A DNA stretch of 64,000 bases from Candidatus Binataceae bacterium (lineage in GTDB: Bacteria > Desulfobacterota > Binatia > Binatales > Binataceae): contig JBKQPD010000157.1 in NCBI GenBank assembly GCA_052145175.1, forward strand, positions 1,658 to 65,657. The letters run 5' to 3'. Made by a program: the position numbers and the translations under genes. The notes below the pieces were generated by a model. It was given only the letters and a program-made list of their open reading frames with translations, did not search any database and was not told where the DNA came from. Numbering within the stretch: position 1 is the first letter of the stretch; each line of letters opens with the position of its first letter. This document shows, piece after piece, positions 16,741 to 58,358 of the stretch.

Positions 16741-17075
16741 TTCGATTCGCCCCCTTTGAAGCTGGCGCGCAACAGTTCTGTCCTGGAGAAGCTGTTGCAA
16801 CCACCGCCGTCGTTTAGATCGGTCTTGCGTCCCGGTACATTCCTGGCGTCTCTGACATTGACGACAAACTTACCCAATCCACTTTCGTGCTCCTGCGCGT
16901 GTCCACGCAACCCGGACGAGGCCTACAAGAAAGGTCAAACAAGATGAGGAAACACAAGATGCTATTTCAGGTGCTATTAAAGCAAAGTCGATCTTGGATC
17001 CAGGGCTCTTGCGCATTATATACGCCCTTCCAGCGGATGACACGGTGGTTTGCAATGACTTCATCGGGATCAATC

Positions 17076-45243: not shown

Positions 45244-45340
45244 CCATCCGCTGAAACCGGCGCCGTCGATCGACGTATAAGGGTTGCGCGAGGGGCGCTG
45301 CTTGACACCGCGACTCCGCGTCGGCATCGTGCAAGGCTCA

Positions 45341-45946
45341 ATGGTTTGGTTGCGCAGGTCTTTGGTGCTCGTCCCCGTCGTCGCTTTTCTTTCGGCGGCG
45401 CTGCTCTTGAGCTGTGGCGGTGGCAGCAGCAGCACGACCCCTACGGGGCAGCCATTCTCGCTGATGAGCGTCGCGATCTGCCCCGGGCCGCCTCCGACCG
45501 CGAGACCGACGCCATCGCCGACCAAGGGCGCCTCACCAACCGCCACGCCGACCCCGCAATGTACGCCAACCGCGGAAGCTTCGATTGCCGGCTTGAGCGC
45601 TCCTGATAACACGGTTCAATTCAACGTGCAGGGCACCTACCAGACCAGCCCAAGCAGCAAAAAGAAGCTCTACTTTGATGATACCAGCGACCTGTCATTG
45701 CGCTGGAATTCTCAGCCGGCCGGGCTCGCCACCAGCGGCGTTGTGCCCGGTGAGTTCGTCGGGGTGGCGCCCGGCTGCGTCTGCCTGACCGCGGAAATCG
45801 CGCCGGCGATTAGTTGCCCGGTCAGCGTGTCGATTGCGACCACTGGATGTACGCCGTGTCCGACGCCTTCGCCTTTCAACCTCTGTCCGGGACCAACGCC
45901 GACTGTGACCCCGTCGAAGACGCCGAAAGCGACGCCATCGCCGTAG
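45341..45946 (+). CDS. Lipoprotein with P/T-rich linkers and a bacterial Ig-like (Big_2-like) domain
   Basis: MVWLRRSLVLVPVVAFLSAALLLSCGG lipobox, PTPSPT-type low-complexity segments on both sides of a ~90-aa beta-rich domain. Confidence 0.55.
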   Translation: MVWLRRSLVLVPVVAFLSAALLLSCGGGSSSTTPTGQPFSLMSVAICPGPPPTARPTPSPTKGASPTATPTPQCTPTAEASIAGLSAPDNTVQFNVQGTYQTSPSSKKKLYFDDTSDLSLRWNSQPAGLATSGVVPGEFVGVAPGCVCLTAEIAPAISCPVSVSIATTGCTPCPTPSPFNLCPGPTPTVTPSKTPKATPSP

Positions 45947-45990: not shown

Positions 45991-46009
45991 TGTTAACAAA
46001 CGGTTCACA
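45991..46009. promoter_or_regulatory. Imperfect palindrome, candidate TetR operator
   Basis: TGTTAAC-aaacg-GTTCACA (6 of 7 positions symmetric), 68 nt upstream of the TetR gene that heads the lipid operon. Confidence 0.3.
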
Positions 46010-46076
46010 CGGCTGCGCTGGCGATTTGACTCCCGGCGCTCCTGATCAATAGGCTGGCGAGTCGGGACCGGGGGGA

Positions 46077-46724
46077 ATGGAAAAAGAAGCTCGGCGCGAG
46101 CAGGTGTTGCGTCACGCGAAGCGGATTTTCGCGCGCAAAGGTTACCATCACACCAACATATCCGACATTATCGCGCGGGCGCGGATCGCGCGCGGCACCT
46201 TTTACCTTTATTTCGAGAATAAGCGCGAACTCTTCGAAGAGTTGCTCGCCCAGGTCCTTGGCGAGCTACGGCTGCGCATCCAACGGCTGCGCGTCGGACC
46301 GGGCGAGCCCGATCCGGTCGAGCAACTGCGCTCCAACCTGCGGCGGGTGCTCGGCCTGGTGCTGGCGGAGCGCGAATTGACCGATATCCTGCTAAACCAT
46401 GCGATGGGGTTCGATCGGGAGCTCGATACCCGGATCATCGACTTTTACGAGCAGGTCGTTGATCAGATTCAGCGGTCGTTGGACCTCGGGATTGAGATGA
46501 ACCTGGTCCGGCGATGCGACACGCGCGTTGCCGCCTATTGTATCCTGGGCGGGATCAAGGAGGTGGTGGCGCAAGCCTCGCGCGCCCGGCGGCGCGATAT
46601 CGCGATGCTTGCTGAGGAGATTCTCGGCTTCGGGTTGCGCGGTGTGGCCCGTCCGGAACTGATCGCGGGAATCCTGAGCCAGCACCGCCCGGAGGACGCT
46701 GTTTTGACGCGTGAACTAGACTGA
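46077..46724 (+). CDS. TetR/AcrR-family transcriptional regulator
   Basis: N-terminal HTH: FARKGYHHTNISDIIARARIARGTFYLYFENKRELF. Confidence 0.85.
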   Translation: MEKEARREQVLRHAKRIFARKGYHHTNISDIIARARIARGTFYLYFENKRELFEELLAQVLGELRLRIQRLRVGPGEPDPVEQLRSNLRRVLGLVLAERELTDILLNHAMGFDRELDTRIIDFYEQVVDQIQRSLDLGIEMNLVRRCDTRVAAYCILGGIKEVVAQASRARRRDIAMLAEEILGFGLRGVARPELIAGILSQHRPEDAVLTRELD

Positions 46725-46725
46725 C

Positions 46726-47517
46726 ATGTCAGTACATCGTCCGGCAAAGACGCGCGGTGCGCGCCCGGCGGCAGCGGGGGCGGCCTTTTACGACCTCGAC
46801 GGCACGCTCGTCGCTCTCAACCTGATTCACACCGCGCTCTATCTGTTCTCGAATCTCGGCGAATGGACCGGGCGCGCGAGCTATCTGCTGAACTTCGCCG
46901 CGCGCATTCCGTCGTTGTATTTCGCCGAACGCCGCGACCGGTATCTGCTGAATGTCGTGCTCTTCGAGATGTTTAAAGGGGTCTCGCGCGATCGCCTCGA
47001 GGAACTGGGCGACGAATATTGCGAACGCGTGCTGATGGAAAATCTCTACCCGCAGGCGCGCGACATGATCGAATCGAATCGCGCCGCCGGACTCGAACCG
47101 GTGTTGGTCACCGGTTCGCCGGACTTTATCGCCGCGCCCCTCTCGCGGCGCCTCGGGATCGGTGACTACGCCGCCAACCGGCTGGCCTTCGTCCGCGGCC
47201 GCGCGACCGGACGCCTGGTGTCGCCGATCATGGCCGGTGACGAAAAGGCGCGCTGGTGCGCGGACTATGCGGCGGCGCGCCAGCTCGACCTGGGCAAATG
47301 CTGGGGCTATGCGGATTCACATTACGATTTACCGTTTCTCGCGGCCCTGGGCCATCCGGTGGCGGTCAACCCCGATCAGCGCCTGAGCGCGACCGCCCAA
47401 AGCCGGCAATGGCCGATTATTCACTTCAACCGACAGGGCCCACGTACCACCCTCGCGCGCGCGATGCGGGCGCAGGCCGAAAGCTGGATTTGGAGGTGGC
47501 TCGATGGCGCGGCCTGA
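46726..47517 (+). CDS. HAD-IB family hydrolase (SerB-like phosphatase fold)
   Basis: Motif I FYDLDGTLV, motif II VTGSP, motif III/IV K...YADSHYDLPFL. Starts 1 nt after the tetR stop. Confidence 0.75.
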   Translation: MSVHRPAKTRGARPAAAGAAFYDLDGTLVALNLIHTALYLFSNLGEWTGRASYLLNFAARIPSLYFAERRDRYLLNVVLFEMFKGVSRDRLEELGDEYCERVLMENLYPQARDMIESNRAAGLEPVLVTGSPDFIAAPLSRRLGIGDYAANRLAFVRGRATGRLVSPIMAGDEKARWCADYAAARQLDLGKCWGYADSHYDLPFLAALGHPVAVNPDQRLSATAQSRQWPIIHFNRQGPRTTLARAMRAQAESWIWRWLDGAA

Positions 47518-49144
47518 AGCCCGTCTGAAGGAGCTCAAGTCGTCCGATCTCAAACACGAGATCGACGCGCGCCGCGATCTCGTCGTTACGCTCAACCGGC
47601 GCTCGGAGAACCGCCTGATCGCCTATGGCGAAGACTTCATGTTCGAGAAGCTGCCGGTCGGAACCCGGGTGGTCTATCCGCCCCCGCCGCTCGATCCCCT
47701 GCCCGACCCCGACACGGCAATCCGTTACGCCCTGCTCCATCCGCTGAATGCTGATCCGCTGTTCGCGCAGCTCAATCCGAACATGCGGGTCACGATCGCG
47801 ATCGACGATATCAGCCTCCCCCTGCCGCAGATGCGCCGTCCGGATCTGCGCGAGCGGATGCTCAATTCGATCCTGCAGACCCTCGCGGATTACGGTGTGG
47901 ACGACGTTCATCTGGTTGTCGCGACCTCGCTCCATCGCCGCATGACGGAGCGCGAAATTCGCCGGATGGTCGGCGAACGCGCGTTTCGGCAATTCTGGCC
48001 CGAGCGGCTCTACAACTTCGACGCCGAAAACCGCGCCGAGATCGTTATGATGGGCAAAACCGATCATGGCGAAGAGGTCTGGCTCTCGCGCCGTGCGGCG
48101 GAGTCCGACCTCGTCATCTATCTGAACATCAACCTGGTGCCGATGGACGGCGGTCACAAGTCGGTCGCGGTCGGGCTCGCGCCTTATCAGAGCCTGCGTC
48201 ATCACCACAATCCGGCGACCCTGCGCGACAGCCATTCCTACATGGACCCGAACCGCTCGGCCCTGCACAACTCGGCGAACCGGATGGGCAAGCTGATCAA
48301 TCAGCAGCTCAACGTCTTTTCAGTCGAGACCGCCGTGAATACCCAGATGTACGGCGGGATGCTCGATTTTCTGCAGAAGAACGAGGATCGCTTTTCCGAT
48401 TGGGACCGGATGCGGCTCAAGGGTTTCCGCTGGACGCTCGGTTCGGTCTCGAATGACCTGCGCCGCCAGATGCTGCATCAATATGCGGCGCCCTATGGCC
48501 TGACCGGCGTCTGGGCCGGTGAGACCGAGACCGTGCATCGGCAGGCGCTGGCGAAGGTCTTCCAGCAGTACGCGGTACCGGTCAAAGGGCAGTCCGATAT
48601 CCTGATTGTCGGCGTGCCGTATATCTGTCCCTACAACGTCAATTCGATCATGAACCCGGTCCTCGTGCAGTGCACGGGCATGGGCTACCTGTTCAACATG
48701 TATCGCAACAAGCCGCTGGTGAAACCCGGCGGCACGATGATCATCTGTCATCCGCTGCGCGACGAATTTCACCCGGAGCATCATCCGAGCTACATCGAGT
48801 TTTTCCATCGATGCCTGAGTGAGACCACCGACGCCACGGAGCTTGCCAACAAGTACGAGCACGAGTTCGCGCACAACCCGACCTACACGCACATGTACCG
48901 TTACGGCCACGCCTACCACGGCGTGCATCCGTTCTACATGTGGTACTGGGGCGAGCCTGCGCGCCAGCATTGCGGGCGGGTGATCGCGGCCGGTTGCGAG
49001 GAGCCGGAGGTTGCCGCGCGGCTCGGCTGGGAGGCGGCTGACACGCTCGATGAAGCAATCGCGATGGCGACTGCGGATCACGGGCGCTCGGCCAGCATAA
49101 CTTATCTGCACCTGCCGCCACTGGTTATAGCCGATGTCGAATAA
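47504..49144 (+). CDS. LarA-like (DUF2088, lactate-racemase N-terminal domain) protein, extended 546-aa form
   Basis: VTIAIDDISLPLP, DLVIYLNINLVPMDGGHKSVAVGL (resembles the region around the cofactor-tethering Lys of LarA). GGAGGTGG RBS 6 nt upstream. 14-nt overlap with the HAD gene. Confidence 0.6.
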   Translation: MARPEARLKELKSSDLKHEIDARRDLVVTLNRRSENRLIAYGEDFMFEKLPVGTRVVYPPPPLDPLPDPDTAIRYALLHPLNADPLFAQLNPNMRVTIAIDDISLPLPQMRRPDLRERMLNSILQTLADYGVDDVHLVVATSLHRRMTEREIRRMVGERAFRQFWPERLYNFDAENRAEIVMMGKTDHGEEVWLSRRAAESDLVIYLNINLVPMDGGHKSVAVGLAPYQSLRHHHNPATLRDSHSYMDPNRSALHNSANRMGKLINQQLNVFSVETAVNTQMYGGMLDFLQKNEDRFSDWDRMRLKGFRWTLGSVSNDLRRQMLHQYAAPYGLTGVWAGETETVHRQALAKVFQQYAVPVKGQSDILIVGVPYICPYNVNSIMNPVLVQCTGMGYLFNMYRNKPLVKPGGTMIICHPLRDEFHPEHHPSYIEFFHRCLSETTDATELANKYEHEFAHNPTYTHMYRYGHAYHGVHPFYMWYWGEPARQHCGRVIAAGCEEPEVAARLGWEAADTLDEAIAMATADHGRSASITYLHLPPLVIADVE

Positions 49145-52100
49145 CAACGGCGTACTCAACGGGGCTGTCGCGGCCCACCGCACGATGCCGCCGCTCGAAA
49201 CGGTGCTGCGCAAGCGGCGCCTGCTCATCACGGGAGGCACCGGCTTTCTCGGCAAGGTGCTGCTCTCGATCCTGTTGCGGCATCATCCCGAAATCGGGCG
49301 TATCTTTCTGCTGATCCGCGGTGATCGCAAATCGAGCCTCAACCGTTTCCAGCGCGAGATTCTCGACTCGCCCGCCCTCGGCCCGGTACGCGAGTACCTC
49401 GGCGCCAGCTTCGACCGGTACGTCGAGGAACGGGTCGTGGTGGTCGCCGGCGATATTACCGAACCCGGTCTCATCACCGACGGCGCCGAGCTGCTGGGCG
49501 AGGGCGCGCTCGACGCGGTGATCCATTGCGCCGGGCTGGTGAATTTCGAGGCCGCGCTCGAAAAGGCGCTCGCGATCAACGTCACTGGCGTACAGCACGT
49601 CATCGAGTTCTGCCGCCGGCATCAAGCCGCCCTGCTGCACGTCTCGACCTGCTATGCGGCCGGCGCCGCCGATGGCCATCGCTACGAAGACGACGTGCCG
49701 ATCGATTGGGCGCCGCTCAACCAGCGGAACTTTAATCTACAGCGGGAAATTCGCGACGCGCTCGCCGCGTGCCAGCGGGTCGAAGTGGAATCGCGCGATC
49801 AGGCCCATCAGGCGGAATTTCGTGCGACGATTGAGGACGGCGCGGAAGGCTTCGCCGCCAATGACGGCCATGAGCACGCGCAGGAGTCGCGCCGCAAGCA
49901 GTGGGTCGAGGAGCGCCTCAAGCAGATCGGCCGCGAGCGCGCGCTCGGCTGGGGCTGGCCCAACACCTACAGCTACACCAAGAGCCTGGGCGAGCAACTC
50001 GTGCTGGCGGCCGGCGACACCCTGGCGGTGACGGTCGCGCGTCCTTCCGTGATCGAAGGCGCCCTGCGCGATCCCCTCCCCGGCTGGAATCAGGGGGTCA
50101 ACACCAGCGCGCCGCTGACCTACATGGCGGGCCGCGGCTACCGCTTCTATCCCGCCAAGGGCAAGCTCGTCCTCGACGTCATCCCGGTTGATCTGGCCGC
50201 GCACGCGATGATTCCGATTCTCGCGGCGCTGCTGCTCAAGCGGCAGCAGCCCATCTATCAACTCTGCACCTCCGACGTTAATCCCCTGCCGATGCGCCGG
50301 TTGGTCGAGCTCACCGCGCTCGGCAATCGCCTGCAGCATCGCCGCGCGGGTGGCGGTCCGATGGGCAAGCTGGCGCCCCATCTGGAAGCCGTGGTGGTTT
50401 CGCAGAACACTTATGAACTGGCGAGCCAGACTTTGCCCGCGATGCTCAAGCACGCGGCGGTGCTTGGTAAAACGCTGCTCGGGGACGAGTCCACGGCGGC
50501 GCGCGGCTTCGAGCGGCGGATCAACAGTATCGCGGATAACGCGGAGCTCGCACGCTCGCTGGTCGACGTCTATCGGCCGTACATCCAGGAGTTGGTCTAC
50601 ACCTTTCACGGCCGCAATATCCGCGAACTGTACGCGCAGCTCGCCGACGCCGACGTCGCGCGTCATCCGTTCCGCCCGGATCGGATTGATTGGAAGGACT
50701 ATTGGATAAACATCCATCTGCCCGGTCTGCGCCAACATATTTTTCCGCAGCTCGACCTGCATACACGGACCCGGCCGCGCGCCCTGCTGCGCCACAAGAC
50801 CCTGCTGGAGATGCTCGAGCGCGGGGCCGAGCGCTACGGCGCCCGGGTCGCGCTGGAAGCCCGCACCCCTTCCGGCCAACGCACCGCGATGACCTATCGC
50901 GAGTTGCGCGACGCCGCCCATCGCGCCGGACTGCTCCTGCGCACGCGCGGTATCAAGCCCGCGGACCGGGTTCTGCTGATTAGCGAGAACTCGCCGGACT
51001 GGGTAATCGCCTACTTCGCCATTCTTTATGCGGGCGCGGTCGCGGTACCGCTCGATCATCTGATTGCCCTCGAGGAGCTGCTGCCCATCTGCCGCATCGC
51101 GGAACCGCGGGCCGCCCTGCTCTCCTCCGGCTGCCAGAATCGTCTCGACCGGGCCCTGCGCGACGCGCTCGACGGTATCCTCGAAATCGAGCTCAGCGAG
51201 TTGCATCGCCCTTTTATTCTGCGCGACCCGGCCGCCGCCACGGTGAATGTCGAACGCAAGACGCTCGCGTCCATCGTCTTCACGTCGGGCACGACCGGCA
51301 CGCCCAAGGGCGTGATGCTCAGTCACGGCAATTTCACCGCCGAGGTGATGATGCTGGGCCGGGTCTTCGCGCTCGACGGCAACGACGTGGTGCTCTCGCT
51401 GCTGCCGCTGCATCATACCTTTGAGTTCACCTGCGGGATGTTGCTGCCGCTCGCCAGCGGCGCCCGCATTGTCTATCCGCTGGGAATCGACGCGGCCAGC
51501 CTGGCGCGTACGCTGGCCGACGTGCGGCCGACCGCACTGATCGCGGTGCCGGCGCTGTGGGAAGCCGTCCATCGCCGGATCACCGACGAGATCGAAGCCC
51601 GGGGGCCGTTCTTCGCGGCGGCCTTCGCCCGCTTGCGCGATCTGCATCGGCTGCTCGACGGCGACTACCACCTGAATCTCGGTCATCTGATTTTTCGGCA
51701 GGCGCATAACGCCCTGGGCGGCCGGCTCAAGCTGGCGGTGAGCGGCGGCGCCGCGCTGCCGCAGCGGGTCGCGCAATTCTTCAATGACCTGGGGCTCAAG
51801 CTGCTCGAAGGTTACGGCCTTACCGAAACGGCGCCCGTGCTATGCGTGGCGCGGCCCGACGACCCGCTGATCCCGGGCTCCGTGGGCAAGCCGCTCGGCG
51901 GCGTCGAAATCCGGCTGGACGGCGCGGACGAAAGCGGCGTCGGCGAAGTGATCGCGCGCGGCGCGAACGTGATGAGCGGCTATTATCATAATGCGGCCGC
52001 CACCGCGGAAGTGCTTCGCGACGGCTGGCTGCATACCGGCGACCTCGGCCGTTTCGACGCTGACGGCGCTCTCTCCATCGTTGGGCGGGCCAAGGATGTC

Positions 52101-53501
52101 ATCGTCGACTCCGGTGGCAACAACGTCTATATCGACGAGATCGAGGAGACTTACGGCCACTCACCGTACATCAAGGAGATGGCGGTGGCGGGACTCAAGG
52201 TGGCGCAGGGCGAGCAGGTCGCGGCACTCGTGGTGCCGGCCTACGCACGGGGCGAGAGCCGCCGCGCGGTCGAAGATCGGCTGCGCGAACATTTCGATAA
52301 AGTCGGCGCCGGACTGAGCGCGCACAAGCGCATCAGAATCCTCCGCTTCACCGATACCGAACTGCCGCGCACCCGCACCCGCAAGGTCAAACGCGCCGAA
52401 GTCGCGGCCGCACTCGAACGGATGATCCAGAATCAGCCGGGCGCGCGGACGCGCGGCGGCGACGAGATCGTGCCGTGGCTGGCCCACGCGCTGGAGCAGG
52501 TGGCCGGGGGCGCTACGGAAATTACGCCGGCGACCCGCCTGATCGAGGACCTCGGGCTCGACTCGCTCGCCCTCGCCGAACTGGCCGAAGCGATCGCGGT
52601 CAGGGCCGGGGTCGAGCTGAGCGGCGAGCAGCTCGCCAACGTCAGCACGATCGCGGACCTGCAAAAGCTGCTGACCGCGGGACAGAATCGCCCGCGACTA
52701 CCCTCTTACGCCCGCTTCGCCCGACCCTATACCTTCGAGCTGCCCGGCCCGCTCAAGCGTCTCGGCGAAGCGGCGGTGCGCCGCACGTTGCAGGCCGCGC
52801 TGGACGGATGGCTTAAGCCGCGCATCATGGGACGCGGCAATATCCCCGCGAATCGCAACGTGCTGGTGGTGGCCAATCATTCGAGCCACGTCGACTTCGG
52901 TCTGGTGAGCCATGCGATGGCGGCGCACGGCCGCGAGCTGATCGTGTTGGCGGCGAAGGATTACTTTTTCAACAACGGTATTCGGCGCTTCATCGCCATC
53001 AATTTCACCCGGCTGATTCCGTTTGATCGCGAGCGCGCGCAACTCGAGTCGCTCGAAGAGGCCCTCGAGCAACTGCGCGCGGGCCGTAGTGTGCTGATGT
53101 TCCCCGAGGGCACCCGTTCGCCCGATGGCGCGATCCATGATTTCAAGAGCGGCGCCGGCTACCTCGCCCTGCATAGCGGATGCGACGTGCTGCCGATCCA
53201 TATTCGCGGCTCCTACGACGTGCTCGGCAAGGGCAGTCTCATTCCCCGCCGCGCCCCCGTCGAGGTGCGGATCGGGTCGGTGCTCACGAGCGCCACCCTG
53301 CGCGCGGCGGCTCATGACACGGAAGGCCCGGGCGCGTATCGCAAGCTCGCCGATCTCATGCGCGACGCGGTCGTCGGGTTGACCGAGCAAGGGCGTAAGC
53401 GTGGCCGGTTGAGCCCGTCGTCGGCGGTGCCCTCGACGCCACGGACCGTGGCCGAAAAGCCCGGCACGGGACGCGCGGCGCGCAAGCAGGCCAAGGGGTG
53501 A
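49134..53501 (+). CDS. Four-domain lipid megasynthase: fatty-acyl reductase (NAD_binding_4), acyl-AMP/CoA ligase, carrier protein, PlsC-type acyltransferase (ElbD-like)
   Basis: aa ~25-330: ITGGTGFLGKVLL .. YSYTKSLGE (FAR/thioester reductase). aa ~545-1075: FTSGTTGTPKGV, EGYGLTETAP, TGDLGRFDADG, PRTRTRKVKR (AMP-binding). aa ~1095-1175: LGLDSLALAEL (phosphopantetheine Ser). aa ~1195-1400: ANHSSHVDF (HX4D) and FPEGTRSPDG (PlsC). Confidence 0.85.
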   Translation: MSNNNGVLNGAVAAHRTMPPLETVLRKRRLLITGGTGFLGKVLLSILLRHHPEIGRIFLLIRGDRKSSLNRFQREILDSPALGPVREYLGASFDRYVEERVVVVAGDITEPGLITDGAELLGEGALDAVIHCAGLVNFEAALEKALAINVTGVQHVIEFCRRHQAALLHVSTCYAAGAADGHRYEDDVPIDWAPLNQRNFNLQREIRDALAACQRVEVESRDQAHQAEFRATIEDGAEGFAANDGHEHAQESRRKQWVEERLKQIGRERALGWGWPNTYSYTKSLGEQLVLAAGDTLAVTVARPSVIEGALRDPLPGWNQGVNTSAPLTYMAGRGYRFYPAKGKLVLDVIPVDLAAHAMIPILAALLLKRQQPIYQLCTSDVNPLPMRRLVELTALGNRLQHRRAGGGPMGKLAPHLEAVVVSQNTYELASQTLPAMLKHAAVLGKTLLGDESTAARGFERRINSIADNAELARSLVDVYRPYIQELVYTFHGRNIRELYAQLADADVARHPFRPDRIDWKDYWINIHLPGLRQHIFPQLDLHTRTRPRALLRHKTLLEMLERGAERYGARVALEARTPSGQRTAMTYRELRDAAHRAGLLLRTRGIKPADRVLLISENSPDWVIAYFAILYAGAVAVPLDHLIALEELLPICRIAEPRAALLSSGCQNRLDRALRDALDGILEIELSELHRPFILRDPAAATVNVERKTLASIVFTSGTTGTPKGVMLSHGNFTAEVMMLGRVFALDGNDVVLSLLPLHHTFEFTCGMLLPLASGARIVYPLGIDAASLARTLADVRPTALIAVPALWEAVHRRITDEIEARGPFFAAAFARLRDLHRLLDGDYHLNLGHLIFRQAHNALGGRLKLAVSGGAALPQRVAQFFNDLGLKLLEGYGLTETAPVLCVARPDDPLIPGSVGKPLGGVEIRLDGADESGVGEVIARGANVMSGYYHNAAATAEVLRDGWLHTGDLGRFDADGALSIVGRAKDVIVDSGGNNVYIDEIEETYGHSPYIKEMAVAGLKVAQGEQVAALVVPAYARGESRRAVEDRLREHFDKVGAGLSAHKRIRILRFTDTELPRTRTRKVKRAEVAAALERMIQNQPGARTRGGDEIVPWLAHALEQVAGGATEITPATRLIEDLGLDSLALAELAEAIAVRAGVELSGEQLANVSTIADLQKLLTAGQNRPRLPSYARFARPYTFELPGPLKRLGEAAVRRTLQAALDGWLKPRIMGRGNIPANRNVLVVANHSSHVDFGLVSHAMAAHGRELIVLAAKDYFFNNGIRRFIAINFTRLIPFDRERAQLESLEEALEQLRAGRSVLMFPEGTRSPDGAIHDFKSGAGYLALHSGCDVLPIHIRGSYDVLGKGSLIPRRAPVEVRIGSVLTSATLRAAAHDTEGPGAYRKLADLMRDAVVGLTEQGRKRGRLSPSSAVPSTPRTVAEKPGTGRAARKQAKG

Positions 53502-54379
53502 CTAACGTCGCTGAGGGCCAGGGACGACGTACCTCGTCCGCCGGTATGACCTTGTCCTTCGCCCAGTTGCTCGCCGCCCTCGCCCAGCCCGCCTGGTGCT
53601 GGGACTCGCGCACGCATGAACTGATTACCCGGCTGGCCATCGCTGCTTTGCCCGCGACCCCGCTCAAAACGGGCTTTGAGCGCAACACGGCACAACTGGA
53701 AGAATACTCGATCGAACCGGATACGGTGCTCAAGCACATGTATGGCGAAGCGGAAGCGCATCGTCATTACATCGACCTCGAATATTTTGGCGCCGATCCG
53801 TTTGCGAATCTGAATCCGGATTTCAACGCGATGGAACGTCGCTTCGGGATCAGAACGCTCGATCGCTCGGGCGTTCTGCCCTGGGCGATCGAGGCCGAAG
53901 CCGCGGCTACCGCTGGAGCCATGCGCGCCGGCGACTGTGCCGGACTCCTGCGCCATGCCGGCTATCTCGCGCACTACGTCGGCGACGCGAGCCAACCGCT
54001 CCATACGACACGCTTTTATGATGGCTTTACGGCGGAGGACCGTGGGATGCACGCGCGGCTCGAATGGTCGGTCGATCATCGAGTCAATGAGATCGAAGCG
54101 TTGGCGTCCGCCCAGGTGCGCTTGCAGCCGATTGTTTCGGTGTGGACCCCGGCGATCGCCGAGCTCAAGGAATCGAATGCGCTGGTTCAACAGGTCGTGA
54201 CCGCCGACCGCACTGCGCGCGCGGAAGCCGGTCGCAGCCACGCGGAGTACACTCGCGCGCTAATGGGAATCGAGCAGGACATGATCATCCACCAGATCGC
54301 CGATGCGGCCTCCGTCCTGACCTCAATCTGGATCTATGAAGCCGATCAGGCCGGCACCCCGAGCATCTGTTCACCCTAG
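53498..54379 (+). CDS. Zinc-dependent phospholipase C / S1-P1 nuclease superfamily protein with probable Tat signal
   Basis: GTGA start/stop overlap with the megasynthase gene. The GRRTSS..LLAALAQPA/W signal leaves an N-terminal Trp (WDSRTHELI), the Zn ligand of this fold. Further H/D-rich motifs: HRHYIDLE, GYLAHYVGDASQPLHTT. Confidence 0.6.
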   Translation: MTNVAEGQGRRTSSAGMTLSFAQLLAALAQPAWCWDSRTHELITRLAIAALPATPLKTGFERNTAQLEEYSIEPDTVLKHMYGEAEAHRHYIDLEYFGADPFANLNPDFNAMERRFGIRTLDRSGVLPWAIEAEAAATAGAMRAGDCAGLLRHAGYLAHYVGDASQPLHTTRFYDGFTAEDRGMHARLEWSVDHRVNEIEALASAQVRLQPIVSVWTPAIAELKESNALVQQVVTADRTARAEAGRSHAEYTRALMGIEQDMIIHQIADAASVLTSIWIYEADQAGTPSICSP

Positions 54380-54420
54380 CGGGTCTCCCTAAAGCGTGGT
54401 CGGGTTTAAGATTCTTGACG

Positions 54421-54472
54421 CAGCTCGCAGACTCGCTTGCTCGCTCCGCGCGGCAGCGCGCTCCGCTAGCTT
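54421..54472. repeat. Inverted copy of the dispersed intergenic repeat family
   Basis: Its reverse complement reads gctagcggagcgcgctgccgcgcggagcgagcaagcgagtctgcgagctg, matching the cores at 3181, 29191 and 38471. Confidence 0.5.
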
Positions 54473-54506
54473 CCTTAATGCGGCGGCCACGCGATAATAT
54501 TCCTCG

Positions 54507-55043
54507 ATGGACTGGTGGACGAAGAGACCCGACAACGAAGCGCGTTCAATCCGGGGCCGCTACTCGCGCCCCTCGGTGAGCGAGATTATGGACGATCTGC
54601 TGGTGGGCGAGTATCCGCGCCTGGGCGATCTGGACTGGCTCAAGGACGAGTATCGCATCAGCGCGATCCACAATCTGCAGGACGACATCGACCTGCATAT
54701 CAATGGGCTCGACGAGCTTGAGCTGCGCGACGAGTGCAGCCGGCTCGGGCTGACGTTTGTTCGCACCCCGATTCACGATGGCAGTGCCGACGACATGGCC
54801 GCGCGGCTGGTGCATGCGCTGGACGCCCTCGGCAACCTGATCGAGGACGAGCAACGCGTCTTTCTGCACTGCAACGGCGGGCTGAATCGCGCGCCAACTG
54901 TCGCGATCGGCTGGCTGCACGCCCAGCGCGATATGTCCCTCGACGAAGCGATGTACTACTTCAAGCAGCGCCGGCCGTGCGGTCCCTTCATGACGGTGCT
55001 CGAGGGTCATTTTGGCCCGCGCGATCAGAAGCCCGCACGCTAA
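54507..55043 (+). CDS. Cys-based dual-specificity phosphatase (DSP/PTP-loop)
   Basis: Active-site signature HCNGGLNRAPT (HCx5R(S/T)) with upstream general-acid region IHDGSA. 178 aa. Confidence 0.75.
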   Translation: MDWWTKRPDNEARSIRGRYSRPSVSEIMDDLLVGEYPRLGDLDWLKDEYRISAIHNLQDDIDLHINGLDELELRDECSRLGLTFVRTPIHDGSADDMAARLVHALDALGNLIEDEQRVFLHCNGGLNRAPTVAIGWLHAQRDMSLDEAMYYFKQRRPCGPFMTVLEGHFGPRDQKPAR

Positions 55044-55053
55044 GCCCGATGGT

Positions 55054-55833
55054 GTGACGGAGGGCGGCGTCGCGGGCGTATCGGCCGCGGGCAGTCTGTC
55101 GCGCGCAAATCCGCTGCGAGAAAATCTGCTCAGATTTTGCGCCTGGCTGATTCACCTCTATACGGCTTCCGGCGCGATCATCGGCCTGCTGGCGATGCAC
55201 TTTACCGCCCATGACGACTTTCGCACGGCCTTCGTCCTGATGGCGGTCGCGCTCTTTATCGACGCGACCGACGGACCGCTGGCGCGCGCCGTCGCGATCC
55301 GCAAGCGCGTGCCTGAATTCGATGGCACCACCCTGGACAATATCGTCGATTTTCTGAATTATGTCGCGGTGCCGGCCTTCCTGATGGTTCGCGCCGGGCT
55401 GCTCGTCGTGGGCAACGCAGGGCTCGCGAGCGCGGGGTTCGTGATGCTCGCGAGCGCCTACGGCTTCTGCCGGGTCGACGCGAAGACCGCCGATCTCTAT
55501 TTCCGCGGTTTTCCCTCGTATTGGAATCTTGTCGCGTTTTATCTCTTCTGCCTGGGCTGGGCGCCCGCCTTGAACACCCTGATCGTCATTGCGCTGGCGA
55601 TCCTGGTTTTTATGCCGGTGAAGTTCATCTATCCCAACCGCACCGTGCGGATGCGAGCGTTGACGCTCAGTCTGATCGCCATCTGGGCGATCGTGACCGC
55701 GACGCTGCTGATTGAACTCCCGCGCATCAATCCTGTTTTGCTTTACTCCTCGCTGGCGTTCGTCGTTTACTACTTTGTTATGTCGGCCGTCTTGCAAGTA
55801 ACATCGCCGGGACCCGGTTCGCTGCGGGTCTAG
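55054..55833 (+). CDS. pcs: Phosphatidylcholine synthase (CDP-alcohol phosphatidyltransferase family)
   Basis: IHLYTASGA, FIDATDGPLAR (D-G-x2-A-R), FDGTTLDNIVDFLNYVAVPAF, YFRGFPSYWNLVAFYLF and FMPVKFIYPNR parallel rhizobial Pcs as I recall it. Start uncertain: GTG 55054, or ATG 55012 overlapping the phosphatase gene. Confidence 0.7.
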   Translation: MTEGGVAGVSAAGSLSRANPLRENLLRFCAWLIHLYTASGAIIGLLAMHFTAHDDFRTAFVLMAVALFIDATDGPLARAVAIRKRVPEFDGTTLDNIVDFLNYVAVPAFLMVRAGLLVVGNAGLASAGFVMLASAYGFCRVDAKTADLYFRGFPSYWNLVAFYLFCLGWAPALNTLIVIALAILVFMPVKFIYPNRTVRMRALTLSLIAIWAIVTATLLIELPRINPVLLYSSLAFVVYYFVMSAVLQVTSPGPGSLRV

Positions 55834-55843
55834 TGGGTCAACT

Positions 55844-57643
55844 ATGGCCGCTGATGTAATCCCCGCGACGCCCGCCTGGCTCGAGATACTAAGGGGCAAC
55901 GCCCCGGTATTGTTGATCGCGCCGCATGGCGGCCGCGCCGGGGCGGCGGCCCGTGCGACGCTCCATCCCAAGGTCAACGACCTCGAGACGGCGGCCATCA
56001 CCCGCGAACTCGCGGAGCGGCTCGACGCCACCGCGCTCGTGAACTCGGGCATGGACCGCAATGATCTCGATTGCAACCGGCTGTCGCAGGTTATGGAGCG
56101 CGAGCCCTGGCTGCTCGAGACGATCGCGGACGAAGTCGCGCGTATCACGGCCCGCCACGGCCGCGTGACCGTCCTGCTGATCCACGGCTGGAACATTATC
56201 GAACCCCGGGTCGATCTCGGGCTGGGCCTGAAGGAGCGCAACGGCCGGCTGCATCCGACGCGCGGCGCGCATATCGCGGCCGACGACGAATTCATCCAGG
56301 ATACCGCCCACGCGCTCGCGACCCGTTTGCGTCAGGCCGGGATCGTGACGACCTTCGGACTGCGCTATCCGGGGGGCGCCGCACAAAATCTGTTGCAGGC
56401 CTTCACGCCGCGTCACGCCGCGAGCGATCATCCCGCGGTGCGCCGGCTCGCCAATTTGGCGGCGACCGGCGTGATCAATGCCTTGCAGCTCGAGCTTTCG
56501 GTTGCGGTGCGGCTCGCCGGCGACGTGCGGCGGAACATGATCGACGCGGTCGTCGCGACTTTCGGCCCGCCTCGGGGTGACGGCGCCAGCCGGTCCGCGA
56601 TCGCCGTCGTGCGCGACGCACCGCCGAAGCCGGCGCGTAAATCCGTAGCCAGCTCGGCTAACCTTCCCCCTTTTCGCATCGGGGTCGAATTCTACGACCC
56701 GGCAATCGGTCTCGGCGGCATGGCCAGCTTTGATTTTGGACCGAACGCCGCGGGCGGGCGCATCATGATGCTGTTCGAACGCCGCCGCGTCGCGCTTTTC
56801 ACGGGCGAGGGCGGAGCAGTGCGAATCGGCGACAGCGTCGCACTGGGGCCGTTGACCCTGGACGGCGGTGCGGGCAGCAGCGGCCTGCGTTTCCACGGTC
56901 CCGCCGTGGTCGTCGACGACGGTACGGCCTATCTGAGCGTCGAGGGGGCGCTCGCCGGGGGACGACTCGATCCCGCGATGGAAGTCGACACGACGCTCGA
57001 GTTCGCAGATGGTGCGCCGCGTTTTGGCGACGTGCTGGGCCGGCTCGAAGCAATCATCGCGCAGCTCGCCCAGGCTCGGGCCGGCGCCGACGAAGTCGCG
57101 CCGATCATCGTGCCGCGCTCCAGCTTCGGCCGCTTACGCGGCGCAGTCAGCTTCGACGGTGCGCGCCACCGGCTCGACGCGATCGCGCGGGTCGGCGTTT
57201 CGTTCACCGGGCTCGGGACGCGGAACTTCGCTCAGCGCCGGATGGTCTGGGCCTGCCTCGATGGCGTACAACCGCACGAGGCCCTTGAGCTGAGCGCGCT
57301 GGAATTTGACGCTTCGCCGACCCATCGTAGTGCCGCGCTGCTCGCTTGCGGCGCCTGGCAGCAGGCCCAACTTTGCGGCCTCGAGCTTGAGGCGGCGTCG
57401 CCCTACGTGCCGCCGGACAAGATCGCCGCGTCAATCATCGACGCCTCGCGCGTAATTGCCCTGGAGGGAGTTCCCGACACCTTCATGACCCTATCCCGGC
57501 CCGGACCTGACGGCAGCCGAATCCACACGTCTTTAGGCTTCGCCCGTTATCGAATCGACGGCCGCGAGAGCGCCGGCATGTACGAATACTCGCGCCGCGC
57601 GGGAACTGCGACGCTCGACGGAGCGTCCAGTACAGGGGATTAG
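55844..57643 (+). CDS. Hypothetical 599-aa protein; N-terminal third weakly N-formylglutamate-amidohydrolase-like
   Basis: Longest ORF with strong GC3 bias, 10 nt after pcs. The N-terminus (VLLIAPHGGRAG .. NDLDCNRL .. VLLIHGW) recalls the FGase fold. The remainder is unrecognised. Confidence 0.5.
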   Translation: MAADVIPATPAWLEILRGNAPVLLIAPHGGRAGAAARATLHPKVNDLETAAITRELAERLDATALVNSGMDRNDLDCNRLSQVMEREPWLLETIADEVARITARHGRVTVLLIHGWNIIEPRVDLGLGLKERNGRLHPTRGAHIAADDEFIQDTAHALATRLRQAGIVTTFGLRYPGGAAQNLLQAFTPRHAASDHPAVRRLANLAATGVINALQLELSVAVRLAGDVRRNMIDAVVATFGPPRGDGASRSAIAVVRDAPPKPARKSVASSANLPPFRIGVEFYDPAIGLGGMASFDFGPNAAGGRIMMLFERRRVALFTGEGGAVRIGDSVALGPLTLDGGAGSSGLRFHGPAVVVDDGTAYLSVEGALAGGRLDPAMEVDTTLEFADGAPRFGDVLGRLEAIIAQLAQARAGADEVAPIIVPRSSFGRLRGAVSFDGARHRLDAIARVGVSFTGLGTRNFAQRRMVWACLDGVQPHEALELSALEFDASPTHRSAALLACGAWQQAQLCGLELEAASPYVPPDKIAASIIDASRVIALEGVPDTFMTLSRPGPDGSRIHTSLGFARYRIDGRESAGMYEYSRRAGTATLDGASSTGD

Positions 57644-57755: not shown

Positions 57756-58358
57756 ATGAACCGATTCGCACAACTGGGCTGTGTGGTAGTTCTTAGCTTT
57801 TTGGGCGGCTGCGGCGGCTTAACCAACGCGGCATCTAGTGGTGATGCGCCTGCAGTGCAGGCGCTGATAGACAAGGGGGCCGACGTCAATGCCAAGAACC
57901 TCGCTGGAACGACGCCGCTCATATGGGCCTCGCAGAATGGTCACCTTGATGTGGTGCAGCTGCTGCTCGACAAGGGAGCCGACGTTAACGCCAAGCAGAA
58001 TAACGACGGTGCGACCGCGCTGATGATAGCCTCCTACTTCGGTCACGTTGACGTGGCGCAGGCGCTGCTCGCCAAGGGGGCCGACGTCAATGCTATGGCG
58101 AATACCGGCGAGACCGCGCTGACAGGGGCCTCCGCAAACGGCCACCCTGAGGTGGTACAGGCACTGATCGAAAGCGGGGCCTCTAGCCAGGTTGCCGTCA
58201 ACGGCACGTCCCCGGCGTTCGCGCCCGGCGTTGGCTTTGCTCAGCCTTTGCCTTATGGTGAAACTGCTATGGGCATACAGTCGGACCTTAACCAAGCGGC
58301 CGTCCAGAATCAGATCAATAACCGGTGGGACGCCGCCGTCATGAACCGGATGCGCTGA
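57756..58358 (+). CDS. Ankyrin-repeat lipoprotein
   Basis: Lipobox VLSFLGGCGG, then four ANK repeats (G.TPLIWASQNGHLDVVQLLLDKGADVNAK..). GGAGG RBS. Confidence 0.75.
   Translation: MNRFAQLGCVVVLSFLGGCGGLTNAASSGDAPAVQALIDKGADVNAKNLAGTTPLIWASQNGHLDVVQLLLDKGADVNAKQNNDGATALMIASYFGHVDVAQALLAKGADVNAMANTGETALTGASANGHPEVVQALIESGASSQVAVNGTSPAFAPGVGFAQPLPYGETAMGIQSDLNQAAVQNQINNRWDAAVMNRMR

Follow-up and report, generated by a model that had tools for sequence, protein, structure and literature searches.

The window analysed here, 64,000 nt of DNA from Candidatus Binataceae (Binatota), an uncultured soil bacterium, contains a run of eight closely spaced genes on the + strand and raises the question of whether these constitute a single, uncharacterised system for specialised phospholipids, as a sequence-only reading had proposed, or a known system joined to other parts. 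The eight ORFs lie where that reading had placed them and every junction was reproduced: a 1-nt gap is followed by overlaps of 14, 11 and 4 nt (GTGA), a 127-nt gap between the genes for the phospholipase C-like protein (PLC) and the dual-specificity phosphatase (DSP), a 32-nt overlap between DSP and Pcs (or a 10-nt gap, if Pcs starts at the in-frame GTG at 55054) and a 10-nt gap between Pcs and the 599-aa protein that we call U599. The GC3 of all eight ORFs (0.73-0.83) is of the coding type, the catalytic motifs are intact in each enzyme of the set and all of the domain assignments proposed earlier hold in profile searches with Pfam and NCBIfam models.

Gene order and the regulatory gene

Conservation was counted over the 47 loci of Binataceae species in which the sequence extends 5 kb or more beyond elbD. 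The full eight-gene order is found in 19 of these loci and the same order minus the PLC gene in 21. Co-localisation in related genomes, proposed earlier as a check, was found: DSP and U599, with or without Pcs, lie directly 3' of elbD in 41 of the 47 species (87%), a linkage that is kept across divergence down to 59% identity for ElbD and 42% for U599, with the contiguous modules on one strand and gaps of 69-143 nt, those between elbD and DSP measuring 69-109 nt. The eight-gene arrangement is real and conserved, far beyond chance.

The first gene of the cluster at all Binataceae loci encodes a TetR-family regulator (46077..46724, +; TetR_N 55.6 bits, TetR_C_24 28.7 bits), which is absent from the elb loci of other phyla compared across Acidobacteriota and Myxococcota. 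Among named regulators it most resembles FadR, which controls fatty-acid genes in Bacillus, although the score falls far short of the cutoff (NF053878, E 3e-17, 62.9 vs 200 bits). The region at 45991..46054 (+) might be the promoter/operator of this gene, as judged from consensus matches only: a palindrome, TGTTAACA, at 45991-45998 and a -35-like TTGACT at 46026-46031. Of 63 unique loci of relatives, 31 have a TTGAC[ATC]-N16-18-TAnnnT pattern 45-56 nt 5' of the TetR start and 9 have a TGTTGACA-type box some 80 nt upstream.

The elb core

Genes 2 to 4 are assigned, on their sequences and order, as orthologues of the elbB-elbC-elbD ether-lipid core. The ElbB equivalent is a HAD-IB phosphatase (46726..47517, +; TIGR01490 115.7 bits, cutoff 98.3; DLDGT motif at residue 23), whose gene lies directly 5' of that for a LarA-like protein in more than 100 loci from three phyla. 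The ElbD-type enzyme of 1455 aa (49134..53501, +) combines a fatty acyl reductase, an adenylating ligase, an ACP and an AGPAT-type acyltransferase, matched by Pfam in the order NAD_binding_4 (+Sterile), AMP-binding, PP-binding and Acyltransferase, and all of its motifs (GGTGFLG, YxxxK, TSGTTGTPKG, LGLDSL, HSSHVD and FPEGTR) were found; its full-length homologues are 59-98% identical within the Binataceae and 36-39% identical in other phyla. Pontiella also carries an ElbD homologue and ether lipids were not detected there, so that such a homologue is no guarantee of ether lipids. The elbB-elbC-elbD order is common to Binataceae, Acidobacteriota and Myxococcota, and HAD-LarA-ElbD-ElbE occurs in more than 60 non-Binataceae loci. 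No elbE is present in the 64-kb window or at any Binataceae locus and, in agreement with the sequence-only reading, no gene for an alkyl-DHAP synthase (AGPS) or PlsA/R occurs anywhere in the window.

The reference cluster is elbABCDE of M. xanthus (MXAN_1531-1527, MIBiG BGC0000871, Lorenzen et al. 2014; PMC9131029, PMC13012113). According to PMC9131029, disruption of the cluster removes ether lipids and ElbE is needed for their full production. In M. xanthus, elbB (HAD phosphohydrolase), elbC ("unknown function") and elbD have the same order and strand as in the window, the four domains of ElbD (FAR-ACS-ACP-AGPAT) follow the same order, and the ether-forming step, for which the enzyme is not known, needs no AGPS. 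The Binataceae locus differs in lacking elbE (NAD-dependent epimerase/dehydratase) and elbA, in its upstream TetR gene, in having DSP-Pcs-U599 (with or without PLC) in the elbE position and in its host (Binatota vs Myxococcota); the M. xanthus lipids carry ethanolamine as head group. The likeness of the 1455-aa protein to ElbD had been seen correctly and understated, since HAD, LarA-like and ElbD together reproduce the published elbB-elbC-elbD order. The locus is not a wholly new system, because it consists of a known, genetically characterised core plus a lineage-specific head-group set; the earlier description of it as uncharacterised is at most partly supported, half of the locus being this known core.

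The protein in the elbC position (47504..49144, +; NF052592 837 bits, cutoff 740; Lar_N) is a LarA-family homologue of group LarAH14/15/16. Of the three core proteins it is the best conserved, with 56-60% identity between phyla compared with 37-39% for ElbD. In alignment with L. plantarum LarA, H144 corresponds to His108, K219 to Lys184 and HHH233-235 falls at His200, with Asn210 in place of His174; on these residues we classify the protein as a single-histidine nickel-pincer (LarA) homologue. Its nearest solved structures, 9q2u and 9q3j, are single-His LarA-like enzymes (PMC12611868). With the single-His members of groups 14/15/17 (Blautia wexlerae, Streptococcus plurextorum; 9q2u, 9q3k, 9q3j; PMC12611868, PMC7583248) it shares the Lar_N fold, the NPN-tethering Lys, the nickel-binding His region and one catalytic His, the second being likewise replaced (by Asn in the Binataceae protein), and its extra C-terminal region aligns with 9q2u. 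It is only distantly identical in sequence to the enzymes of known structure (two aligned segments, E 5e-31) and its cofactor loading is a prediction; its genomic context is one of lipid biosynthesis rather than carbohydrate metabolism, and LarAH14 has no known racemase substrate (PMC12611868, PMC7583248). The equation with M. xanthus ElbC is by gene position in other Myxococcota and in Acidobacteriota, not by the M. xanthus sequence, and we found no paper in the literature linking ElbC to LarA.

An optional exported phospholipase C-like enzyme

The fifth gene (53498..54379, +), which overlaps elbD by 4 nt in the window, is present in 20 of the 47 Binataceae loci (about 45% of species) and encodes a zinc phospholipase C-like enzyme with a marginal Pfam score (Zn_dep_PLPC 26.9 bits, cutoff 26.8). 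All nine residues that bind zinc in B. cereus PC-PLC (here W35, H40, D75, H90, H159, D163, H169, H185 and E189) are invariant in 40 homologues, and the AF2 model (pLDDT 91.5) comes closest in fold to PC-PLC and Listeria PlcB (TMt 0.73-0.79), which rank over S1/P1 nucleases. In common with these enzymes and the N-domain of C. perfringens alpha-toxin, the protein has all nine ligands, including the mature N-terminal Trp, an all-helical fold and a cleaved signal peptide for secretion; it differs in its low identity (14-16%), in the lack of a C-terminal PLAT domain and in its Gram-negative-type uncultured soil lineage, and its role as a lipase rather than a nuclease is predicted. Export, which had been proposed to proceed through Tat, is supported by a signal peptide that, in every homologue, closes with AxA immediately ahead of the ligand Trp, but the Tat route is not: only 18 of 36 homologues contain a twin arginine, never in a canonical Tat context.

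The DSP-Pcs-U599 module

The remaining three genes appear, from the loci compared, to be a second, separable module, confined to Binatia, in the position that elbE occupies in other phyla; neither they nor the PLC gene were found at any of the elb loci compared outside the Binataceae. A candidate internal promoter is the -10-like box GATAATAT (54493..54500, +), whose end lies 6 nt upstream of the start codon of DSP. Of 88 unique orthologous sequences, 57 have a TANN[AT]T ending 4-12 nt before the DSP start, whereas six control windows gave counts of 1-7 among the 88, and the module probably has its own promoter. The single translationally coupled operon proposed earlier is accordingly disfavoured relative to two modules by this box, the optional PLC gene and the separability of the modules.

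The cytoplasmic DSP (54507..55043, +; DSPc 55.3 bits), the invariant partner of U599, has the HCx5R signature HCNGGLNR at residue 121, is closest to the glucan phosphatases LSF2, LSF1, laforin and SEX4 (PDB 4kyq, LSF2: E 1.4e-20 over residues 26-167) and has neither a predicted signal peptide nor a predicted TM segment. The Pcs-family CDP-alcohol phosphatidyltransferase (55012..55833, +) gives full-length matches to five NCBIfam Pcs models (E 1e-42 to 4e-59, with PssA at E 1e-9), yet falls below all of their genus-level equivalog cutoffs; its homologues align only from residue 31-43 onward. It shares with the Pcs of Sinorhizobium, Legionella, Pseudomonas and Borrelia (about 240-270 aa) the motif DGx2ARx12Gx3Dx3D, here at residue 87, and a polytopic character (six to seven hydrophobic segments), and differs in being flanked, with near overlap, by DSP and U599; its alcohol and lipid substrates are predictions.

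U599 (55844..57643, +) was assigned to no family in profile searches, with weak Pfam matches to FGase and DUF7064, and no signal peptide is predicted. Its AF2 model (pLDDT 81, pTM 0.83) suggests a formylglutamate-amidohydrolase-like N-terminal domain (FGase 2q7s, E 1.4e-4) and a C-terminal AttH/CrtC-type lipid-binding double beta-barrel, for which Foldseek returned AttH 2ich, 25-phosphosteroid lyase 9fzn, the pericyclases Fsa2/Phm7, CghA and kievitone hydratase 7a0q (E 1e-7 to 1e-4). These likenesses are at the level of predicted fold (7-17% identity), and catalytic residues could not be mapped; H28-G-G and H114-G-W-N are invariant. Homologues form 340 clusters among 1.84 billion representatives, and the two-domain fusion is seen only in Binatia and a few hundred distant metagenomic clusters.

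Possible function and alternatives

We consider the chances about even that two evolutionary modules, encoded on the same strand, here make up a lipid locus of the Binataceae, with ether-linked phosphatidylcholine as its possible product. Extrapolating from the genetics of M. xanthus, ElbD would adenylate a long-chain fatty acid and load it on its own ACP, its reductase domain would convert part of the acyl pool to aldehyde or alcohol and its AGPAT domain would acylate a glycerol-phosphate acceptor, to give a 1-O-alkyl-2-acyl glycerolipid as the end product of the first module. The single-histidine LarA-type enzyme might employ a nickel-pincer cofactor for the temporary removal of a hydride from a hydroxyl carbon of the glycerol intermediate, creating a transient keto/DHAP-like state for ether-bond chemistry that would replace the missing AGPS and reductase steps, and the HAD enzyme would remove phosphate. 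Pcs would then join choline to CDP-activated diradylglycerol to form phosphatidylcholine, including the ether-linked form if the first module supplies the backbone; the LSF2-like phosphatase might act on a phosphomonoester that is not part of a protein, for example in phosphocholine or a phosphorylated lipid; U599 might bind lipid in its barrel, its amidohydrolase-like domain hydrolysing an amide or ester bond; and PLC, where present, might act on choline phospholipids outside the cytoplasm. The homologies, domain architecture and order of the elb core across phyla, the short gaps and conserved linkage between the modules, the Pcs-type motif, the zinc site, fold and signal peptide of PLC, the likeness of the U599 folds to lipid-handling enzymes and the retention of the NPN-binding Lys and His together with one catalytic His count in favour of this lipid-locus reading. 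Counting against it are the lack of larBCE (nickel-pincer cofactor genes) in the 64-kb window and of a CDP-diglyceride synthase, lipid kinase or choline transporter in the cluster; the missing ElbE and the Pontiella case weigh against its ether-phosphatidylcholine part.

It is possible, if somewhat doubtful, that a TetR-elbBCD(-PLC) operon and a separate DSP-Pcs-U599 unit situated by mrp-dksA-miaB are merely neighbours through ancestral family synteny, the latter serving housekeeping phosphatidylcholine synthesis, or another role, on diacyl substrates. The probable promoter before DSP and the occurrence of the second module free of elb mean that the linkage may be inherited synteny. DSP-Pcs-U599 is found without adjacent elb genes in 5-7 species, in four loci (L130, L170, L183, L190) alone, with unrelated genes or an IS1595 transposase upstream; five elb loci have no such module downstream; at L019 the trio stays with mrp-dksA-miaB rather than elb; in a divergent lineage, PLC-DSP-U599 occupies this anchor position with no elb genes; and non-Binataceae elb loci never carry DSP, Pcs or U599. 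Moreover, since DSP-U599 occurs without Pcs (L001, L277/L278), the core function of the module may not be phosphatidylcholine synthesis. Against mere neighbourhood stand the contiguity of the modules on one strand in 87% of species across deep divergence, the ElbD/PLC overlap, the lipid-related functions predicted for all components and the TetR orthologue that directly heads the second module where elbBCD is missing (L164, L142; at L164 it is 74% identical and directly 5' of PLC-DSP-Pcs-U599), which also counts for the lipid-locus reading. A further point for that reading is that genomes with unlinked modules still retain both, as at L053/L190 (one contig), L067/L183 (one MAG) and L019.

We regard it as unlikely that the first module makes no ether lipids here and that ElbD is instead an Aas-like synthetase/acyltransferase or a producer of fatty alcohols or wax esters, the locus serving phospholipid turnover and re-acylation without ElbE. 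Beyond the lack of ElbE and the Pontiella case, this would suit the turnover theme of PLC and the phosphatases, the partial matches of ElbD to the Aas models PRK08633 and PRK06814 (acyl-[ACP]-phospholipid O-acyltransferase) and the lack, according to PMC9131029, of an in vitro demonstration of its acyltransferase and reductase activities. The Aas matches, however, are far under the cutoff (219 vs 1221 bits) and cover the ligase part only, the reductase motifs are intact, and in both its full four-domain architecture and its gene order the module agrees with the M. xanthus cluster, which is required there for ether lipids. Scavenging of choline and phosphate by the second module seems very improbable. 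The exported PLC would cleave environmental phosphatidylcholine or sphingomyelin, DSP would free choline and phosphate from phosphocholine, U599 would hydrolyse the remaining amide lipid and Pcs would recycle the choline, a logic resembling that of PlcH, PchP and Pcs in Pseudomonas aeruginosa. The PC-PLC type and export of PLC, the amidohydrolase-like and lipid-binding domains of U599 and one distant U599 homologue adjoining phoU-phoBR and a phosphodiesterase fit such a scheme, but the Pho context comes from that single locus, PLC is missing in more than half of the species, the cluster has no choline or phosphocholine transporter, and DSP and U599 have no signal peptide and therefore cannot act where PLC acts.

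Related clusters in other phyla

At 10 pooled non-Binataceae loci, the recurrent neighbours are Lar_N, HAD, an ElbE-type epimerase, a YegS-type lipid kinase and an extra acyltransferase, and never a Pcs-type transferase, DSP, zinc PLC or U599 homologue. The earlier statement that no coupling of an elb core with pcs, PLC and DSP was known stands, in that we found none described in the literature, but elb genes next to head-group genes as such have been reported. Homologues of elbB and elbD occur outside myxobacteria in Acidobacteriota subdivision 4/6 and in sponge symbionts, and in some clades the elb-like genes lie next to CDP-alcohol phosphatidyltransferases, DAG kinases, G3P acyltransferases or a phosphatase (PMC9426513; bioRxiv 10.64898/2026.06.23.733905). 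In the sponge symbionts, according to the latter (a 2026 preprint), they adjoin CDP-alcohol phosphatidyltransferases and a phosphatase.

Relation of the cluster to the elb operon of Myxococcus xanthus

The eight ORFs of the cluster all lie on the + strand, with positions and junctions that agree, on ORF checking, with those proposed in the earlier sequence-only reading, and every one of the domain calls made there was reproduced by Pfam and NCBIfam profile searches. In all eight the GC3 is of the coding type (0.73-0.83; the window as a whole has ~63% GC), and motif inspection found the catalytic motifs intact throughout the cluster's enzymes. The first four ORFs, which we refer to as module 1, encode a TetR-type regulator (46077-46724, +; Pfam and NCBIfam TetR), a HAD-IB phosphatase of the ElbB type (46726-47517, +; above cutoff for TIGR01490, with DLDGT intact), a LarA-like protein in the position of elbC (47504-49144, +) and a 1455-aa ElbD-type protein (49134-53501, +). 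The HAD and LarA-like ORFs overlap by 14 nt, and the LarA-like and ElbD-type ORFs by 11 nt. The 1455-aa protein matches NAD_binding_4(+Sterile), AMP-binding, PP-binding and Acyltransferase, that is, a FAR-like reductase, a ligase, an ACP and an AGPAT-type acyltransferase in this order, and carries the motifs GGTGFLG, YxxxK, TSGTTGTPKG, LGLDSL, HSSHVD and FPEGTR.

In the elb operon of M. xanthus, elbA is a dispensable NAD epimerase gene, elbB encodes a HAD phosphohydrolase, elbC is of "unknown" function, elbD encodes a FAR-ACS-ACP-AGPAT enzyme and elbE an NAD epimerase/dehydratase (PMC9131029, PMC13012113); without elbE, M. xanthus does not reach its full ether-lipid content (PMC9131029). The domain order published for M. 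xanthus ElbD (PMC9131029) is that of the 1455-aa protein, and the HAD and LarA-like genes stand immediately upstream of the ElbD-type gene, as elbB and elbC do of elbD. An elbE downstream of elbD is what the window does not have: a tblastn query with an ElbE-type protein (14408-15421 of L016, a comparison locus with canonical elbBCDE) found no such gene in the window, nor in a single one of the Binataceae loci, and its sole match in the window was a 22-residue Rossmann stretch inside ElbD. By the ElbB, ElbC and ElbD features of its sequence the locus is assigned to the elb-type clusters, and not by the ElbE feature. Neither AGPS nor PlsA/R was found across the whole 64-kb window, as the sequence-only reading had claimed.

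Synteny was surveyed by tblastn of the window proteins against 273 loci of species-representative genomes, together with precomputed gene calls, and the genome scans seeded with LarA-type proteins covered the best 80 of more than 500 matches, all of them MAGs. At 65-98% identity, the full-length homologues found for the 1455-aa protein come almost entirely from MAGs labelled Candidatus Binataceae or "delta proteobacterium" (unclassified), which places the window in the Binatota. In tblastn the order HAD, LarA-like, ElbD is present in every Binataceae locus, and also in Acidobacteriota (Vicinamibacteria, Pyrinomonadaceae, Blastocatellia and Marinacidobacterium) and Myxococcota (Polyangia and Myxococcales MAGs), for a count of more than 100 loci in three phyla. 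At more than 60 loci outside of the Binataceae the triad continues into an ElbE gene, which is the published elbB-C-D-E order with a LarA-type gene in the elbC slot; the Binataceae loci differ from these in having a TetR gene ahead of the core and no ElbE-like gene. Identity across the phyla is 56-60% for the LarA-type protein, 40-44% for HAD and 37-39% for ElbD, and no other member of the core is conserved to the same degree as the LarA-type protein.

A Pfam scan of the ORFs in 10 pooled non-Binataceae elb loci found Lar_N and HAD domains in all 10, an ElbE-type epimerase in 8/10, a YegS-type lipid kinase in 4/10 and an extra acyltransferase in 3/10. A YegS-type lipid/diacylglycerol kinase gene adjoins canonical elbBCDE genes in L016 (15447-16373, -) and in Pyrinomonadaceae loci such as L114, L224, L239 and L264, and its recurrence hints that the Elb pathway might proceed via a dephosphorylated intermediate that is later re-phosphorylated.

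The LarA-type protein in the elbC position

The LarA-like protein of the window scores 837.4 bits against NF052592 ("LarAH14/15/16"), well past the family cutoff of 740, in a match that spans positions 2-520 of the 520 in the profile. When its residues are mapped by alignment to L. plantarum LarA (8ezf/5huq), the catalytic His108 is kept as H144, Lys184, which tethers the nickel-pincer cofactor (NPN), is kept as K219 within an invariant GGHK, and the His200 region is kept as HHH233-235; the position of the second catalytic histidine, His174, is occupied by Asn210 (8ezf alignment). The equivalents of H144, Asn210, K219 and H233-235 are invariant from the Binataceae to L016. Loss of His174 is a hallmark of LarA-superfamily groups 14 and 15 (PMC12611868), and LarAH14 has shown none of the racemase activities assayed. 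The closest solved structures, 9q2u and 9q3j, are single-histidine LarA-like enzymes.

Because the position of this gene is conserved in elb loci, we infer that ElbC itself is a LarA-type protein, and the reported occurrence of LarA homologues in 80-100% of Myxococcota is consistent with such an assignment. Within the collection of papers that was searched, none pairs ElbC with LarA, lactate racemase or a nickel-pincer. Genes for larB, larC or larE are not present in the 64-kb window and do not recur beside elb clusters in the 10 pooled loci.

Proteins encoded behind the elb core

Module 1 is followed by an ORF for an exported zinc phospholipase C-like protein (PLC-like; 53498-54379, +) and then by a trio, referred to here as module 2, of an HCx5R phosphatase (DSP; 54507-55043, +), a putative phosphatidylcholine synthase (Pcs; 55012-55833, +) and a 599-aa protein, U599 (55844-57643, +). 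Pcs has an alternative start at an in-frame GTG at 55054, 10 nt past the DSP stop codon. It is matched over its full length by all five Pcs models (E 1e-42 to 4e-59), with scores that are all below the genus-level cutoffs (the best is 200.2 bits vs a cutoff of 440, for the Legionella model), and scores 38.5 bits against PssA and 14.2 bits against Pfam CDP-OH_P_transf. The CDP-alcohol phosphotransferase motif, with the spacing typical of Pcs (DGx2ARx12Gx3Dx3D), occupies residues 87-113, and the six to seven hydrophobic segments are those of a polytopic membrane protein.

The PLC-like protein, with the motif HYVGDASQPLH, has marginal Pfam matches to both Zn_dep_PLPC (26.9 bits) and S1-P1 (23.8 bits). 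By motif alignment to 1ah7, the nine residues that bind zinc in B. cereus PC-PLC (here W35, H40, D75, H90, H159, D163, H169, H185 and E189, of which W35 is the mature N-terminal Trp) are invariant in 40 sequences. All of the homologues have a signal peptide, with an AxA end just before the ligand Trp, and a twin arginine occurs in only 18/36 of them. Foldseek comparison of a predicted model (pLDDT 91.5) ranked PC-PLC and Listeria PlcB first (TMt 0.73-0.79), ahead of the S1/P1 nucleases (0.55-0.65), and this ranking, together with a last ligand pair of the His...Glu kind, would make a P1/S1 nuclease less likely than a phospholipase C.

DSP has a DSPc domain, the motif HCNGGLNR and no signal peptide. 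Among solved structures, a PDB search placed it nearest to LSF2 (E 1.4e-20, spanning the domain) and LSF1, with laforin and SEX4 after them. LSF2 and LSF1 are plant glucan phosphatases. An identity as a PTPMT1-like PGP phosphatase was considered and set aside, since the PDB matches were to these four and to protein DSPs, with no PTPMT1 among them. The substrate of DSP is presumably a non-protein phosphomonoester.

U599 falls into no Pfam or NCBIfam family, and a sequence-profile search against the PDB sequences gave no match, which left the comparison of folds as the only informative approach. In a confident model (pLDDT 81, pTM 0.83) the N-terminal domain appears formylglutamate-amidohydrolase-like (2q7s) and the C-terminal domain an AttH/CrtC-type double barrel, a fold common to 25-phosphosteroid lyase, kievitone hydratase and the Fsa2-type pericyclases, all of which bind hydrophobic ligands. 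The genomes of 123 species, virtually all of Binataceae type, contain a homologue, and out of 1.84 billion representative proteins the family accounts for just 340 clusters. As a rare new family that always travels with a bacterial LSF2-like phosphatase, U599 may point to a lipid-processing step.

Distribution and separability of module 2

Module 2 is a separable and lineage-specific unit. In counts centred on U599, which took in loci with enough flank only, ElbD is followed by DSP-Pcs-U599 at 29 loci, by PLC-DSP-Pcs-U599 at 25 and by DSP-U599 at a single locus, and the trio has no ElbD upstream at 5-7 loci. Counts centred on LarA, over the 47 Binataceae loci with at least 5 kb past ElbD, gave the full eight-gene layout with PLC-DSP-Pcs-U599 in 19/47, DSP-Pcs-U599 in 21, DSP-U599 in one, PLC only in one and none of these genes in five; where nothing follows ElbD, unrelated genes of the opposite strand are found there instead. 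PLC is missing in 21 of the 41 loci with module 2 behind ElbD. The trio is always convergent with mrp-dksA-miaB and remains with these genes even in the rearranged locus L019.

Upstream of the stand-alone trios there are unrelated genes or an IS1595 transposase, as in L190, where an IS1595-family transposase (3882-4814, +) lies ~3 kb upstream of DSP-Pcs-U599 in a manner consistent with IS-mediated separation of the modules. In two other loci (L164 and L142) elbBCD is missing and module 2 comes directly after a TetR orthologue (74-75% identity). Both modules can be retained though unlinked: L053, the elb core of the L190 genome, lies ~57 kb from L190 on one contig, and L067 and L183 belong to one MAG. 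A divergent lineage of Binatia (L277, 4497-7728, and L278; GCA_015470965.1 and GCA_027317185.1) also has a PLC-like gene, DSP and U599 (39% identity) next to mrp-dksA-miaB-lolA-ftsK, and lacks both Pcs and the elb genes; since DSP and U599 overlap by 4 nt in this lineage, DSP-U599 is the tightest pair.

The most distant homologues of U599 (32% identity) occur in unrelated gene contexts. One of them, of 576 aa (L280, 7001-8731), divergently adjoins two thymidylate-kinase-like genes, a type I phosphodiesterase gene, phoU and a phoBR-type two-component pair, so that a link of U599 to phosphate starvation is possible from this one locus.

Transcription

A candidate promoter of the TTGACA-N17-TATAGT type lies 45-56 nt before TetR in 31 of the 63 unique loci, and the pattern occurs in 0/120 DSP upstream regions. 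What precedes DSP is a -10-like hexamer that ends 4-12 nt before the start codon in 57 of the 88 unique sequences (control windows, 1-7/88), represented in the window by GATAATAT at 54493-54500 (+). Its recurrence points to a probable internal promoter, from which the mRNA may be leaderless, and such a promoter fits the existence of stand-alone trios. The gaps ahead of DSP measure 69-109 nt from ElbD and mostly 54-143 nt from PLC. No TetR operator turned up that would be common to TetR and DSP: a TGTTGACA-type box occurs upstream of TetR in 9/63 regions and upstream of DSP in 0/120. Generic scanning of the region for sigma-70 promoters and terminators did no better than on shuffled sequence, and Rfam gave no match in the window.

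The proposal that the eight genes form a single translationally coupled operon is not sustained in the face of the box before DSP in 57/88 sequences, nor is their co-occurrence obligatory, given the 5-7 species that have the trio by itself, the 5 with just the elb core and the optional nature of PLC. In view of the probable internal promoter and the stand-alone trios, a more fitting description of the cluster is TetR-elbBCD(-PLC) followed by DSP-Pcs-U599, between which read-through could occur; module 2 is probably transcribed from a promoter of its own and can be kept without module 1.

A possible pathway and its significance

From the genetics of M. xanthus, module 1 would make the backbone of an alkyl-ether glycerolipid. 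The single-histidine LarA-type enzyme would then act on the glycerol backbone by a hidden-redox (hydride-borrowing) step, and this would replace the DHAP/AGPS/reductase logic, for which the window has no AGPS or PlsA/R. Pcs would add choline to give a phosphatidylcholine that may be ether-linked, and DSP, U599 and PLC would contribute accessory steps on phosphate, amide/ester and head groups. In its most specific form, the proposal is that the elbC-slot protein is a nickel-pincer enzyme that performs the AGPS-independent ether-forming or ether-enabling step of the aerobic bacterial Elb pathway via transient hydride abstraction from the glycerol backbone, that the Binataceae pathway is wired to Pcs for the production of ether-linked (plasmanyl) phosphatidylcholine, and that the Binatia-specific DSP and amidohydrolase/AttH-fold protein are new head-group/backbone processing enzymes. 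We regard this combination as improbable as it stands. As a lipid class, plasmanyl phosphatidylcholine is considered essentially eukaryotic. The main caveats for the ether-lipid mechanism are the absence of ElbE, the fact that an ElbD homologue in a genome does not guarantee ether lipids, the independence of module 2 and the occurrence of DSP-U599 without Pcs.

The description of the cluster as an "uncharacterised", unitary system was overstated, since the elbB-C-D core was already known, but its layout is real. Elb-like clusters have been described beside CDP-alcohol transferases and phosphatases in sponge symbionts (bioRxiv 10.64898/2026.06.23.733905), and the coupling of elb to head-group genes is therefore not new in principle. 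As far as we have found, the occurrence of elb in Binatota, the DSP-Pcs-U599(±PLC) module in the position of elbE and the U599 family are new, as is the explicit assignment of the elbC slot to a single-histidine nickel-pincer homologue. The main genomic survey of the Binatota makes no mention of phospholipids, ether lipids or choline. For the Elb route to the alkyl ether bond in aerobic bacteria (PMC9131029), joining orphan LarA groups that have no substrate with an orphan ether-lipid gene yields a hypothesis of ether-bond formation that can be tested directly, namely that ether-lipid synthesis depends on nickel and larBCE. Elb genes also serve as markers in the search for the producers of ether lipids and of the brGDGTs used as palaeoclimate proxies. 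The Binatota, a widespread and uncultured soil phylum, appear to carry an elb variant without elbE that is joined to Pcs, from which one would expect choline lipids with ether linkages, to be looked for in soils.

Other features of the window

Just upstream of TetR is a 220-aa ORF rich in Pro/Thr/Ser (45284-45946, +) with a lipoprotein-like signal; it has no Pfam match and is weakly conserved (38-52%) in the closest relatives. The gene between U599 and mrp (57756-58358, +) encodes an ankyrin-repeat protein of 200 aa whose N-terminus (LSFLGGC) is lipoprotein-like, and it looks like a recent insertion, since tblastn found no counterpart at the same position in ~100 related Binataceae loci. An antitoxin of the Xre/MbcA/ParS type, with an Xre-like HTH and a toxin-binding C-terminal domain, is encoded at 32684-33142 (+) and is overlapped by an ORF (33094-33507, -) for which Pfam gave no match. 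Stretches of lower GC (0.56-0.59 vs ~0.63 elsewhere) at 12.7-19.1 kb and 26.7-28.7 kb are associated with a 663-aa ORF with at most a weak Tachylectin match (16887-18878), two DsbA-like thioredoxin proteins (14647-15837 and 19177-20130) and a 586-aa TPR protein (26826-28586). Directly downstream of a gene for an NtrY-like HAMP-PAS histidine kinase (3559-5796, +) lies a 430-aa fusion (5845-7137, +) of a response-regulator receiver (residues 16-125) to a complete LpxC deacetylase (162-427, 284 bits), an arrangement which suggests that the committed step of lipid A synthesis might be controlled by phosphorylation.
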